A stretch of DNA of 54,748 nucleotides, from IMG/VR virus record IMGVR_UViG_2909303794_000001. One strand, given 5' to 3'. The DNA comes from a virus. Lineage: Duplodnaviria; Heunggongvirae; Uroviricota; Caudoviricetes. Made by a program: the position numbers. Of the stretch, positions 18,001 through 24,000 are shown piece by piece (position 1 is the first letter of the stretch; each line of letters begins with the position of its first letter).

Positions 18001-21000
18001 GACACGTTCATCTTTGGTCATACGCAAGCAGTGAAACCACTCAAATTTGCCAACCAGATGTATATCGATACCGGCGCAGTGTTCTGCGGAAATCTCACAT
18101 TGATTCAGGTACAGGGAGAAGGCGCGTGGGCATAAGAGAACTAAACCTCACCAAAGAACAGCATGAGTGGCTGAATGGCTGGCTTGAACTGTGGGGCGCA
18201 TGGGTTTATTCAGGTCGTCTGGAAAAGCGCATGAGCAGCGTAATAGCTAAATTCATGGAGAGCGTGGAGCCGGGAAGAGTTATGACAAGGCCAATGTGTA
18301 ATGATGATGATGGAATGTTGATTTCTCAGGTCGTCGATTCCGTCATGTACATTGACAAGAAAGCCTTTGGCATCCTCCTCAGCTACTACGCCCACGGCTC
18401 TTCCAAGCACGCCATTGCATCTTACTATCATAGCGTCGCAAGACCTCGCAAGATGTTATGCCGGGGCGGCGGGCGCATTCAAAAACCATCGCTAGCAACC
18501 TGTCGACGGGAAGTTGACGAAATCCTCAATGCCTCGTTGTTTATGATTTACCCGATTCTGGATAGTGCGTTTAAAAACCGGAAACGTGTAGAGAAAATTA
18601 AGCATGTAGCATAGAACGTGTTGACATCGTTGAGCAAATGAGCAACACTATTCGCATAAGCTGCCGTTAGTGACTCTTAAGTTGCAACGGTGGCTTTTTT
18701 TATTTGGGTCAATCGTATAAAGGTCATTAGAGCCTGTAACTGTTTTTCGTCCATAAATTAACCTTCATTTGATGCTGGATTGAACATATCAAAATCAGGC
18801 AATTACACAAATCTATGTACAGGCTCTTTGTGCCTGACGTTAAAAGATTTTTTACAAGAATAATTTTGAATCAGTGAATTTGTGAACTCTTGCAACATTG
18901 ATTTCGTAACGTTATTATCCTACGCTCGGCCCTTTAGCTCAGTGGTGAGAGCGAGCGACTCATAATCGCCAGGTCGCTGGTTCAAATCCAGCAAGGGCCA
19001 CCAACCGCCATTAGCTCATCGGGATAGAACGCCAGCCTTCTAAGCAATCGGTCACTGGTTCGAACCCAGTACAACGCACCACACTTATTTTCCCTCGCTC
19101 GCTTTTGCGGACCTTTTTTGTATCCGCGCCACGCCCGGCGCATACCAACCACAGAGCCTTTCGGGGGGGAGCTTACGGAGTGGTCAGTGTGACTTTCTCT
19201 GTGGGCAGATCGCTCCCGGGCGTTGGCTCACCCACCCAAAGGAACGTCACGATGTTTGGTATTTTTGGTAAAAAAAGCCCGCAGAGCGGCAACGGAAATT
19301 AAAAAGTTTGAAAAACGCGATCTGGCACAGGCGGTGATTAACGCCGCATACCTGGTGGCCTGTGCAGATGGTGAATGTGAGGCTTCCTAGAAAGCGAAGA
19401 TCGAACAGGTACTGCGTAATCAGCCTGCGCTGTCCGCGTTTACGTCAGAAATTAATGCGATTAGCGCAACCATTATCGGTCAGCTGGATACGAACTTTAA
19501 AATTGGTCGTCGTGCGGCGTTACGTGAGATCGAGGATGTGAAACACGATACGCGTGAAGCGGAAGATGTGCTGGATGTGGCGGTGGCCATTGCGGAGGCA
19601 GACGGCGAAATTGAGCCGGAAGAGCGCAAGGTGCTGGAAGAGATTGCCGGTGTTCTGGGTCTTCGTCTGGAGAATCACCTGTGACGGTAAAACTGCGCCT
19701 GACTGTGGCTGCACTCCTGCTGTTTCTGGTGGTGATGGTGGATTTCACCAGCAGAATCATGTCGGTGCTGGCGGATGGGGTGCTGGTCTGCGGCATTGTG
19801 GTATTGCTGTGGCCGGTGATAAAAAGAAACAGCCTGCATAATGCTTGATTTTTTTGTTTGCTGTTTATTAAAAACACTTCTGCATGGTGAATCCCCCTGT
19901 GCGGAGGGGCAATCAGCGAGTAGGTATATGGGATAATCGCGGATTCAGGTGCTGGTACTGAATTCACCGGGAGGCACCCGGCACCATGCTTTGCCACAAA
20001 AGTGTTATTTCTGTTTTTCTCAAACTATCATCGTTATCCCTTTATTTCCGGCTGCGCATGGCGCGGCCTTTTTTTTACGACCAGCCACTGGCAGATGGTC
20101 ATCCTGTGATTTGATTCCGGTTCCGGCTTTTTAACTCTGTTCCTGTACACGGGAGAAATTCGATGTCGATTAAACATTATGATGTTGTCAGGGCGGCGTC
20201 GCCGTCAGACCTTGCGGAAAAGCTGACACACAAACTGAAAGAGGGCTGGCAGCCGTTTGGTAGTCCGGTGGCCATAACCCCTTATACCCTGATGCAGGCG
20301 ATTGCAGCAGAAGGTGATGTGGTGGTCAGTGGTGCAACTGAGCCGGATTGGTACTACGTCATCGTACTGGCCGGGCAGTCCAATGCAATGGCTTACGGGG
20401 AAGGGCTTCCGCTTCCGGATTCATACGATGCTCCGGATCCGCGCATTAAACAGCTGGCGCGCCGCAGTACAGTTACGCCGGGTGGGGCTGCCTGCAGATA
20501 TAACGATATTATTCCGGCCGACCACTGCCTGCATGATGTGCAGGATATGAGTACGCTGAATCATCCGAAGGCAGACCTGAGCAAAGGGCAGTACGGCTGT
20601 GTCGGCCAGGGCTTACATATTGCCAAAAAACTGCTTCCGTATATCCCGAATAACGCGGGGATCCTGCTGGTACCATGCTGTCGTGGTGGTTCTGCATTCA
20701 CCCAGGGCGCTGAGGGGACATTCAGTGCGGACACGGGGGCCAGCCAGGATTCGGCACGCTGGGGTGTGGGTAAACCGTTATATCAGGACCTGATTGCGCG
20801 CACTAAAGCTGCATTACAGAAGAACCCGAAAAATGTGTTGCTGGCGGTGTGCTGGATGCAGGGAGAGTTTGACATGAGCGCCGCCACCCACGCACAGCAA
20901 CCTGCGCTGTTTACAGCCATGCTGACACAGTTTCGTGCTGACCTCTCCGTGTTTAACGCGCAGTGCCATGGTGGCAGTGCTGCAGATGTGCCGTGGATTT

Positions 21001-24000
21001 GTGGTGACACGACGTATTACTGGAAAAATACATACGCTACCCAGTACGACACCGTGTACGGCGGGTATAAAAACAGGGAGAGTGAGGGCGTTTATTTTGT
21101 GCCCTTCATGACAGACGGTAACGGCGTCAATACCGCCACTAACGCGCCGGCAGAAGATCCGGATATTCCGGCATCAGGATATTACGGTGCGGCATCGAGA
21201 ACGAATGGAAACCAGGTATCATCAAACCGCCCGACACATTTCAGTTCATGGGCGCGCAGGAGCATTATTCCGGATCGTCTGGCAACCGCTATTCTGAACG
21301 CAGCCGGGCGCACCTCAGCCTTCATCAGTGGTAAGGCACCGGAAATCAAACCCTCGCCCGGCGGCAACACGCCATCGGGTCCGTCTGCAGATACGTCGGT
21401 TCGCACAATCTCCCTGCTGCCGGCAGCCGGAGAGGCTGCTGCGCAGGGCTGGAGCATTAAGGATGGCGGAATTCAGTTGTCAGATGGTGTATTTAAGATC
21501 ACCAAGCAGAGCAATAAAACCTGGTCCCTGACGCATCCGGTGGATGACGCAATTACCCTGCTGACACAGGGCGGCAGACTGACCTGTAAGTTCCGCCTGT
21601 CAGGCGCACTGACCAACAATCAGTTCGGGCTGGGGATTTATCTGTATACGGATGCTCCCGTTCCTGATGGTGTGGCGATGACGGGTACCGGTAATCCGTT
21701 CCTGATGTCGTACTTCACTCAGACCACTGACGGCAGAGTGAATCTGATGCATCACAGGAAAGCCGGAAACACGAAGCTGGGGGAGTTCGGCGATTACGGT
21801 AACGACTGGCAGACGCTGGAGCTGGTGTTCACCGCCGGCAGTGCCACGGTTACTCCGAAACTGAATGGAGTGGCTGGCCCGGCATTCCAGGTTATAAAAG
21901 ACAGTCTGACACTGGGACTGAATGCGCTGACGCTGACGGATGTTACAAAAAATGCAGCGTATGGCGTTGAGATAGAAAGTCTGATGCTGGAGATAAATGC
22001 ACCGGCAGCATAATAAAAAAAGCCAGCGTCCACTCTGAAGGACGCTGGCTAAAACGGGTAGATGTACTTCACATGATACTTATATTTGGCAGTACATTTT
22101 CTGACAGACAGTGACGGATGTTGTCAAGATATTGTGTCATTTATAACCTGAATCAGGGGTTGGTCGGAATGTTATCTGGCATTTTTAGCAGAGCCTGAAT
22201 GCCATAATCACGGCTCCCGGAGTTGGCCGTCAGTGGGTGACACTGGCGGCTTTTTGTTTTCCTTTACTTTCATTTTCTGTCGGCGGTGACGGAGACATAC
22301 ATCAGATGGAAAAAATCACAACGGGTGTGTCATACACCACGTCAGCGGTGGGGACGGGATACTGGTTACTGCAGCTGCTGGACAAAGTCTCTCCGTCCCA
22401 GTGGGTGGCAATAGGTGTACTGGGGAGTCTGCTGTTTGGCCTGCTGACGTATCTGACTAACCTGTATTTCAAAATCAGGGAGGACCGCCGTAAGACGGCG
22501 CGGGGAGACTAAAGCGATGAAGAAAAAATACGAACTGGTTGTTAAAGAGATAAATAATTACCCGGATAAGATTGCTGTTACTGTGGCACTTGAAATTGGC
22601 GGGCATCCGTCGTTGTTGTTGCCAGATGTGGCGATTAGTCTTGACCGTACTGAAGGAGCCACGCTGGAGTTTTACGAAGCTGAGGCGAAAAAGCAGGCGA
22701 AGCAGTTTTTCATGGATGTTGCTGCCGGGTTATGTGAAGGGGATGGTCCGTTGCCGGAAAAGCGGCCCATCATTTTAGAGGCGCAGGATGTGTTGATAAC
22801 CTACAGAGGAAAACTACCGGGAATAATTACTGGTTCTCTGAAGACTCCACCGCTGGCCTGAAGACTTAACATATCCAGGGATTTGAAATCGATAAACCCT
22901 GATAAATATCCATGAACACCAAAATCAGATACGGCCTGTCGGCTGCCGTTCTGGCGCTGATTGCCGCAGGTGCGCCTGCGCCTGAAATCCTCGACCAGTT
23001 TCTGGATGAAAAGGAAGGTAACCACACCACGGCATACCGTGATGGCGCGGGTATCTGGACCATCTGCCGCGGTGCCATCCTGGTGGATGGTAAACCTGTC
23101 GTTCCGGGCATGAAGTTGTCGAAGGAAAAATGCGACCGGGTTAACGCCATTGAGCGTGATAAGGCGCTGGCATGGGTGGCGAAAAACATCAGAGTGCCAC
23201 TGACCGAACCCCAGAAAGCGGGGATTGCGTCATTCTGTCCGTACAACATTGGCCCCGGTAAGTGTTTCCCGTCGACGTTTTACAGACGGATTAATGCTGG
23301 TGACCGCAGGGGAGCATGCGAGGCGATTCGCTGGTGGATTAAGGACGGTGGCAGAGACTGCCGTATTCGCTCAAATAACTGTTATGGTCAGGTATCCCGT
23401 CGTGACCAGGAGAGCGCTCTGGCGTGCTGGGGAATCGACAGATAAGCAGAATATTTTGCTGAAAAATGACGTTGGCCAGCGCGGGCGGATAACACGAAAT
23501 CCTGCGAACTGGCAAAATGTAAGTGAATAAAGTTAGGCAGATTATTTCACGCAGAGGCACCGTAATGGTGCCTTTGTCATTTCTGCGCTTCGCACAAGCG
23601 TAAATAAACCAAAGAACCTTTCAGGATGAGCCCTAGTGGATAACCGGCAGTGGTCTGGTTAACCCTCTTTGGGCTGGTTATTCCTGTGCGCAGGGTTCAT
23701 CACTAAAAGGAATCAACCATGAAAGAGATGATTTCTATCGATCATGAAATATCCATGAGTAGTCTGGATTTTCTGAATAACATTATTAATCCAGCCCGGG
23801 CAGAAGCCGGAGAAGTCCCTCATGAACCGCGTAAGTTTCTTGCAAAAATTGAGGATGAGCTAGAGCTTGATGGAACCGGAAAAAAATTCCGGTTAAACAA
23901 TAACCAGACAAGAACGGCATACTATGATCTGGATTTTGACCAGATGATGCTCGTTGGCATGAGGGAGTCAAAGGCCGTTCGTCGTTCTGTGCTGGCAAGA

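Follow-up and report, generated by a model that had tools for sequence, protein, structure and literature searches.

A nanS-p-type esterase gene downstream of a tciA/tciB cassette in a stx-negative prophage related to Stx phages

Introduction

Esterases of the NanS-p family, among them the products of L0105/z1466 in phage 933W, of vb_24B_21/gp84 in phage phi24B and of the EDL933 and O104:H4 alleles, share an architecture in which a DUF1737 domain, a SASA/SGNH catalytic domain with its SGNH blocks and a lectin-like domain follow one another. Their genes lie between a cargo slot and the holin gene S in the Q-dependent late region, and the proteins carry no signal peptide. Members of the family de-O-acetylate 5-N-acetyl-9-O-acetylneuraminic acid (Neu5,9Ac2) as well as mucin O-glycans, and permit growth on Neu5,9Ac2 (PMC8065619, PMC10462455). 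As summarized in the review (PMC8065619), all tested prophage alleles of EDL933 and O104:H4 gave active esterases; the introduction of PMC10462455 adds that nanS-p alleles of stx-less phages also confer a growth advantage, and its section 3.2 reports that mitomycin C raises nanS-p expression by 1-2.4 logs. Published work documents nanS-p copies in non-Stx prophages and describes them as active (PMC10462455, PMC8065619). Here we analyze a gene of this type at 20163-22013 on the plus strand of IMG/VR virus record IMGVR_UViG_2909303794_000001, a Caudoviricetes sequence of 54,748 nucleotides (nt) which, at its full length, we call the window. The locus is very probably best explained as an intact nanS-p allele in a long-tailed lambdoid prophage, a mosaic relative of Stx phages that carries an amber-interrupted tciA and tciB in place of stxAB. 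Its apparent source, the prophage pool of enterohaemorrhagic and enteropathogenic Escherichia coli (EHEC and EPEC), is part of this explanation.

Several described prophages share large parts of this arrangement. The Stx1 prophage YYZ-2008 (YYZ_gp42) and the O157:H7 Stx1a phages agree with the window in the lysis cassette downstream and in the type of head and tail module, but they carry stx1AB in the slot, a different Q of 144 amino acids (aa), no annotated tRNAs upstream of stx1, and the anti-small RNA (anti-sRNA) AgvB beside an STnc100 element, where the window has none. JLK-2012, from O55:H7 DEC5E, and prophage PPyecE_EH1910 were deposited as stx-negative and have the order (tRNAs)-tciA-tciB-yjhS-S seen here; in both, tciA is intact (143 aa), unlike the amber copy in the window. 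The whole Q-tRNA-tciA-tciB-yjhS-S layout is found in both deposits. JLK-2012 also has its Q in common with the window, but its three tRNAs are different ones, annotated Asn, Thr and Gly. PPyecE_EH1910 differs in its Q, in the methylase and further genes that lie upstream of its cassette, and in the presence of AgvB.

Results

The esterase gene and its product

The esterase gene and the domains and motifs of its product were located as follows.

20163-22013, plus strand: esterase open reading frame (ORF), ATG start, 616 aa, from the ORF listing
20172-20312, plus strand: DUF1737 domain, aa 4-50 (Pfam, E = 3e-15)
20337-21299, plus strand: SASA/SGNH catalytic domain, aa 59-379 (PDB 3PT5, E. coli NanS/YjhS, E = 1.4e-121)
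20379-20381, plus strand: block I serine, Ser73, in GQSN (aa 71-74), aligned with the NanS residue
21237-21239, plus strand: block IV histidine, His359, in RPTH (aa 356-359), aligned with the NanS residue
21423-22001, plus strand: lectin-like C-terminal domain, aa 421-613 (PDB 6YP6, the crystallised NanS-p C-terminal domain, E = 1.1e-29)

An earlier note on this DNA, made from the sequence alone, had described the gene as NanS-p-like, and the exact ORF together with its Pfam, 3PT5 and 6YP6 matches bears out that label. Besides DUF1737, Pfam SASA matches aa 66-262 (E = 1e-12) and Pfam DUF6645 matches aa 467-577 (E = 5e-18). All three Pfam matches lie above the curated cut-offs, and the structural and Pfam matches together are far above chance level. 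A Shine-Dalgarno sequence, GGGAGA, is located 7 nt 5' of the ATG, and the N-terminus reads as hydrophilic, so that no signal peptide is predicted. Judged by homology, the ORF is real and intact, and it combines the catalytic domain, the serine and histidine motifs, the flanking domains and the late-region position of a NanS-p-type esterase.

The protein was then compared, overall and domain by domain, with related esterases (identities in the order overall, DUF1737, catalytic, C-terminal).

JNE132847 prophage: 99.8% (one substitution), 100%, 100%, 99.5%
YYZ-2008 (O157:H7 Stx1 prophage, 616 aa): 98.9%, 94.5%, 99.4%, 99.0%
PPyecE_EH1910: 98.5%, 94.5%, 99.7%, 97.4%
JLK-2012: 97.7%, 100%, 96.7%, 98.5%
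933W NanS-p: 56%, 56%, 70%, 36%

Chromosomal NanS/YjhS (3PT5) aligns along the full catalytic domain and keeps both the GQSN serine and the block IV histidine; unlike the esterase described here, it is without the DUF1737 and lectin-like domains, and it belongs to the sialic-acid (nan) gene cluster and not to a phage late operon. The 933W protein is longer (645 aa versus 616 aa), and the linker that follows DUF1737 (20313-20340) is 11 residues shorter here than in the NanS-p of 933W and phi24B and is without SISSP, a stretch discussed as a proteolytic processing site in phi24B NanS-p (bioRxiv 10.64898/2026.04.10.717836). The second linker (21300-21420) reads KPSPGGNTPSGPS here, versus RPSSPSG in the same two proteins. 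Block IV has the form RPTH, as opposed to RSSH or RASH in known NanS-p (the group of 933W, phi24B, EDL933 and O104:H4), a variant reported for the allele of Stx2 phage 86 (PMC10462455, section 3.1). Three of the four sugar-binding aromatics proposed for the phi24B C-terminal domain stay aromatic in the esterase, as F488, Y493 and F518.

Search for stx

Searches for the toxin genes agreed with the earlier note, which had seen no stxA or stxB reading frames. Comparison of Stx1A/B of H-19B and Stx2A/B of 933W with all six frames of the 54.7-kb window by tblastn (E <= 10) yielded noise only, the best match (E = 0.035 over 29 aa) falling in the tail region. When both stx operons were compared with the window by word-7 blastn, the sole match was the 34-nt terminator that precedes stx2 in 933W (19097-19130). 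BLAST of 19082-20162 against Stx phages, a check that the earlier note had proposed, returned only this pre-stx terminator and a conserved part of the STnc100 element (19864-19989). Thus, neither the protein nor the word-7 nucleotide searches of the window found a stx remnant of any length. In Stx-converting phages, stxA and stxB lie in the interval that separates Q from the lysis genes of a lambdoid backbone; here the toxin genes are missing from that interval, and the backbone, to judge from its sequence, is shared. The window is silent on stx elsewhere in the source strain.

The cargo slot and its boundaries

The region between Q and the esterase gene contains the following elements.

18890-18918, plus strand: promoter-like site before the tRNA, TTGCAA-17-TATTAT, 9/12 matches
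18928-19003, plus strand: tRNA with CAT anticodon, ileZ type (ARAGORN; Rfam tRNA, 72.5 bits)
19005-19081, plus strand: dead tRNA chimera, argN 5' half and argO 3' half (alignment with 933W ileZ-argN-argO)
19089-19130, plus strand: post-tRNA terminator, left slot boundary (86-91% identical to the 933W element)
19256-19684, plus strand: TerB/tciA gene, amber-interrupted (tblastn, 98.6% identical to the intact JNE132847 TerB)
19681-19848, plus strand: tciB/DUF3927, intact, a small hydrophobic protein of 55 aa (Pfam DUF3927, E = 3e-17)
19853-20025, plus strand: STnc100-family structured RNA, right slot boundary (Rfam RF02076, 101.5 bits; gathering score 47)

The left flank closely follows that of 933W. 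The promoter-like site aligns with the region annotated there as the tRNA promoter pT, and the tRNA, called Met by ARAGORN and tRNA-Ile by the Prokaryotic Genome Annotation Pipeline (PGAP) in relatives such as JNE132847, aligns with 933W ileZ without a mismatch. The chimera behind it arose by a deletion of ~90 nt between the anticodon loops of argN and argO, which have GCCTTC in common. By our reading of the sequence, 3/7 acceptor-stem pairs and 2/5 anticodon-stem pairs are left, and a search for a second or third tRNA with ARAGORN and Rfam returned one tRNA only, leaving the chimera uncalled. JNE132847 carries the identical chimera; in O157:H7 LSU61, an intact ileZ-argN-argO block lies upstream of the same tciA/tciB cassette. 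The 933W counterpart of the terminator at 19089-19130 is annotated as a 'possible rho-independent terminator upstream of the stx genes', and homology to 933W stops just past it.

On the right, the STnc100 element also occurs between stxB and nanS-p in 933W, H-19B and YYZ-2008 (179-208 bits). The copy in the window is shorter than the model (173 versus 206 nt), and homology to Stx1 phages begins inside it, at 19868. The anti-sRNAs AgvB and AsxR, which in 933W, YYZ-2008 and PPyecE_EH1910 are encoded on the minus strand directly after STnc100, were absent from 20026-20160 at E <= 0.1; at this place the window and JLK-2012 have in common a different, shorter intergenic sequence. By these alignments, stx-type and tci-type phages have in common the two landmarks that border the slot; the cargo between them is an alternative one and bears no scar of its counterpart.

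The earlier note had named a broken TerB-like gene as the only gene in the toxin slot. The gene is indeed broken, but it is accompanied by the intact tciB (19681-19848), which is 98% identical to the JNE132847 protein and whose JLK-2012 homologue is annotated tciB. With the 99.6%-identical JNE132847 prophage as reference, a single G-to-T change at 19388 converts codon 45 (of 142) of TerB/tciA from GAG (Glu45) to TAG (19388-19390). Pfam TerB matches the intact homologue with E = 4e-15 and spans its aa 25-137, a domain that a stop at codon 45 truncates; the downstream part of the TerB in the window still matches with E = 1e-7, and a complete domain in one reading frame does not occur in the window.

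The nonsense codon is widespread. Of 649 complete-genome records that match a 61-mer around the TAG, at least 520 contain it exactly (O157:H7, O145, O26, O103, O121 and others); the GAG version of the same 61-mer is exact in only 55 records. These counts are not true allele frequencies, as other GAG haplotypes have differences at neighbouring positions. The amber copies are flagged 'internal stop' by PGAP. We considered a private decay event as the origin of the stop and rejected it, given the exact amber allele in at least 520 complete-genome records. Selection, rather than hitch-hiking, may maintain the allele.

The cassette itself is also common. The tciA/tciB (TerB/DUF3927) pair was found in 839 of 5,426 complete E. 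coli genomes, mostly of EHEC serotypes; the number of places in one genome has a median of 6 and a maximum of 10. When the 4.1-kb segment 18000-22100 was used as query, 21 complete E. coli genomes covered >=80% of it, 9 of these at 99.6%.

Organization of the surrounding prophage

Outside the slot, the following genes and signals flank the esterase gene.

17464-18135, plus strand: NinI-type phosphatase (Pfam / JNE132847 annotation)
18126-18614, plus strand: antiterminator Q, 162 aa (Pfam Phage_antitermQ, E = 8e-25)
18663-18700, plus strand: putative first late terminator (tR'-like), hairpin and T-run, assigned from its position just 3' of Q
20050-20076, plus strand: intrinsic-terminator-like hairpin and T8, ~90 nt 5' of the esterase start
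22306-22512, plus strand: class II (P21-type) holin S (Pfam Phage_holin_2_1, E = 4e-32; start per the JNE132847 PGAP call)
22517-22861, plus strand: DUF1327/YdfR family protein (Pfam, E = 2e-43)
22912-23445, plus strand: endolysin R, a phage lysozyme (Pfam Phage_lysozyme, E = 1e-23)
23719-24414, plus strand: antirepressor Ant with KilAC domain (Pfam ANT, E = 3e-28)
24652-25110, plus strand: Rz spanin (Pfam Phage_lysis, E = 9e-50; start per the JNE132847 PGAP call)

The order Q-tRNA-slot-esterase-lysis, which the earlier note had recognized as that of Stx phages, is the order of 933W, where stx2AB stand between the tRNAs and the esterase gene. As in 933W, Ant is located inside the lysis cassette, and 933W has an annotated terminator at the position equivalent to 18663-18700, after pR'/qut. 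The hairpin at 20050-20076 consists of an 8-pair stem with 7 GC pairs, followed by TTTTTTTT. Q is 98% identical to that of JLK-2012 and ~32% identical to the Q proteins of 933W and H-19B.

The lysis cassette is ~94.6% identical to those of Stx1a phages, and for the structural module (25200-50000), identity to those of Stx2a_WGPS8, Stx1a_PV728, Stx2c-converting phages, phage 1717 and YYZ-2008 is ~96% across 97% of the length. Together with the 933W layout, the 98.9% identity to the YYZ-2008 esterase and the absence of stx from the window, this supports the view, put forward in the earlier note, of a stx-negative relative of Stx phages. The early region, on the minus strand, contains an integrase, exo/bet/gam-like genes and a cI-like S24 repressor; the replication genes O and P are present, as are, judged by homology to JNE132847, genes for terminase, HK97-type head, tape-measure and tail proteins, and also J, Lom and a side tail fibre.

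At both ends of the window (1-384 and 54365-54746), the same end of an IS3-family insertion sequence (IS) is found, each copy running outward. Adjoining the left IS is a lambda-type integrase ORF at 353-1093 on the minus strand, of 246 aa compared with 392 aa in JNE132847, which keeps only positions 2-67 of the 172 in the catalytic-domain profile. The window probably represents a contig bounded by IS copies, and the prophage is probably immobile.

The right end is low in GC (0.36-0.43) and carries a gene for an NleG-family type III effector at 50297-50944 on the plus strand, as well as an unannotated ORF of 464 aa at 51642-53036 on the minus strand, with a 12-nt tandem repeat at 52458-52504. 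The 464-aa ORF has no Pfam match, and NCBIfam gave no match above cut-off for it or for the esterase, Q, tciB and NleG; it might be additional effector cargo. At 32815-33356, a unit of 162 nt (54 codons) is tandemly repeated in 3.3 copies with 95% identity, in a region homologous to a JNE132847 gene that PGAP annotates as 'phage portal protein, frameshifted'. Two further genes interrupt the series of tail genes at 41092-42687, one for an Arc-like repressor (minus strand) and one for a P22-type antirepressor (plus strand); the antirepressor portion shares 98% identity with an 'ant' segment that JLK-2012 carries in its early region.

Discussion

The favored explanation, an intact nanS-p allele in a stx-negative mosaic relative of Stx phages, implies a function that can be outlined from homology and from the family literature. 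By homology, the protein is a SASA/SGNH-type hydrolase with the block I serine Ser73 (GQSN) and the block IV histidine His359 (RPTH), and with an N-terminal DUF1737 of the capsid-binding type and a C-terminal jelly-roll lectin-like domain as accessory parts. By analogy with characterized members of the family, the enzyme would cleave the 9-O-acetyl group off Neu5,9Ac2 in mucin-derived sialic acids, giving N-acetylneuraminic acid (Neu5Ac), a product that E. coli can catabolize. Transcription is predicted to start at the late promoter and to pass, under Q antitermination, through terminators at ~18690, ~19110 and ~20060; the terminator-like hairpin at 20050-20076 suggests that read-through into the esterase gene needs Q-modified polymerase. 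Since the protein has no predicted signal peptide and its gene is part of the Q-antiterminated late transcript, downstream of one or more intrinsic terminators, synthesis would occur for the most part upon induction, and lysis would set the enzyme free. The released esterase would then benefit the surviving sibling population, and it may also be virion-borne through DUF1737.

Several observations weigh against this picture. The YYZ-2008-type allele may differ from the EDL933 alleles that were assayed. Identity between the C-terminal domain and its crystallised counterpart is only ~36%, and the fourth of the proposed sugar-binding aromatics, F611, is replaced by the non-aromatic L584; in view of these two differences, binding specificity may differ. 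Q is of a different type from Q933 (~32% identity). Finally, with the integrase truncated beside the IS, the prophage may be unable to excise, but late transcription would still be possible.

A second reading, which we put forward tentatively and regard as possible though not probable, is that the esterase serves the phage: as a DUF1737-anchored capsid protein, it would de-O-acetylate sialoglycans or O-acetylated surface polysaccharides for mucus transit or receptor access, and any nutritional benefit would be a by-product. The model for such a role is the phi24B NanS-p homologue gp84, which cryo-electron microscopy and proteomics locate to the capsid, the central hexons bearing a DUF1737 hexamer (bioRxiv 10.64898/2026.04.10.717836). 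However, phi24B is a short-tailed T=9 phage, whereas in the prophage described here the long-tail genes are lambda-like and the head module is a different one. DUF1737 is conserved in the esterase (E = 3e-15) and keeps Y41 in the loop that matches the Tyr42 'tooth', but its identity to the 933W domain is only 56%, and the anchor loop is shorter by 3 residues. Transcription of the esterase gene with the late morphogenesis and lysis genes is consistent with a role in the particle, and the review raises a possible part in adsorption (PMC8065619); against this, a growth benefit to the lysogen has been shown experimentally for the NanS-p family (PMC10462455, PMC8065619), and in phi24B the catalytic domain is apparently cleaved off the capsid-bound part (bioRxiv 10.64898/2026.04.10.717836). 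As the linker in the window is without SISSP, the proposed phi24B cleavage site, the whole esterase could stay on the virion. A DUF1737-anchored decoration of the capsid of a long-tailed HK97-type phage, with the catalytic and lectin domains of the enzyme retained, is a speculative extension by analogy with phi24B, the only phage for which this role has been demonstrated, and we consider it quite improbable; if true, non-Stx prophage particles would carry a surface that de-O-acetylates mucin sialoglycans.

It also seems to us unlikely that the prophage descends from a stx phage in which recombination in the flanks, at the terminator on the left and at STnc100 or the esterase gene on the right, swapped stxAB for the tciA/tciB of a sibling prophage. 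The flanks of the slot are those of Stx phages, a degraded version remains of the ileZ-argN-argO block that is typical of Stx2 phages, identity to the Stx-phage counterparts is 94-99% in the esterase, lysis and structural modules, and, with a median of 6 cassette copies in EHEC genomes, donors would have been ample. Yet no remnant of stx of any length was found, and Q differs from the Q proteins of both 933W and H-19B. Natural loss of stx in EHEC is usually loss of the whole prophage and not excision of the operon, which counts against this descent as well. Moreover, an exchange could have run in either direction: the tciA/tciB occupant is far commoner in the slot than stx, so Stx phages may equally derive from tci-type phages. 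The lack of a stx remnant and the presence of an alternative cassette within conserved flanks fit cassette exchange or independent cargo better than simple deletion. Flank recombination in either direction appears to be the most economical reading, and the evidence points both ways between the alternatives that the earlier note had allowed, a toxin that was lost and one that was never acquired.

That the esterase is an inactive relic of a decaying prophage, as the TerB nonsense codon, the destroyed argN/argO tRNA, the IS-truncated integrase and the frameshifted copies of the esterase in some other genomes (e.g. PV15-279) might suggest, is highly improbable for a full-length ORF of 616 aa, as in YYZ-2008, that differs by one residue from the JNE132847 protein, has the catalytic serine and histidine and the SGNH blocks intact, and retains its GGGAGA Shine-Dalgarno sequence 7 nt upstream of the ATG.

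The explanation that we favor, an intact nanS-p allele in a tci-type prophage, thus describes an arrangement that is ordinary, common and already described, and the window adds one more copy of nanS-p. Alleles of this gene from non-Stx prophages helped EHEC to grow on O-acetylated sialic acid from mucus. The window clearly shows that either stxAB or tciA/tciB can occupy one and the same slot, with the terminator and the STnc100 element as common boundaries. Neither nanS-p nor the Q-tRNA-lysis layout is evidence for a Stx phage. This point is useful for the typing of draft assemblies from EPEC and from E. coli that makes Shiga toxin (STEC); otherwise, the finding matters little except for correct annotation.

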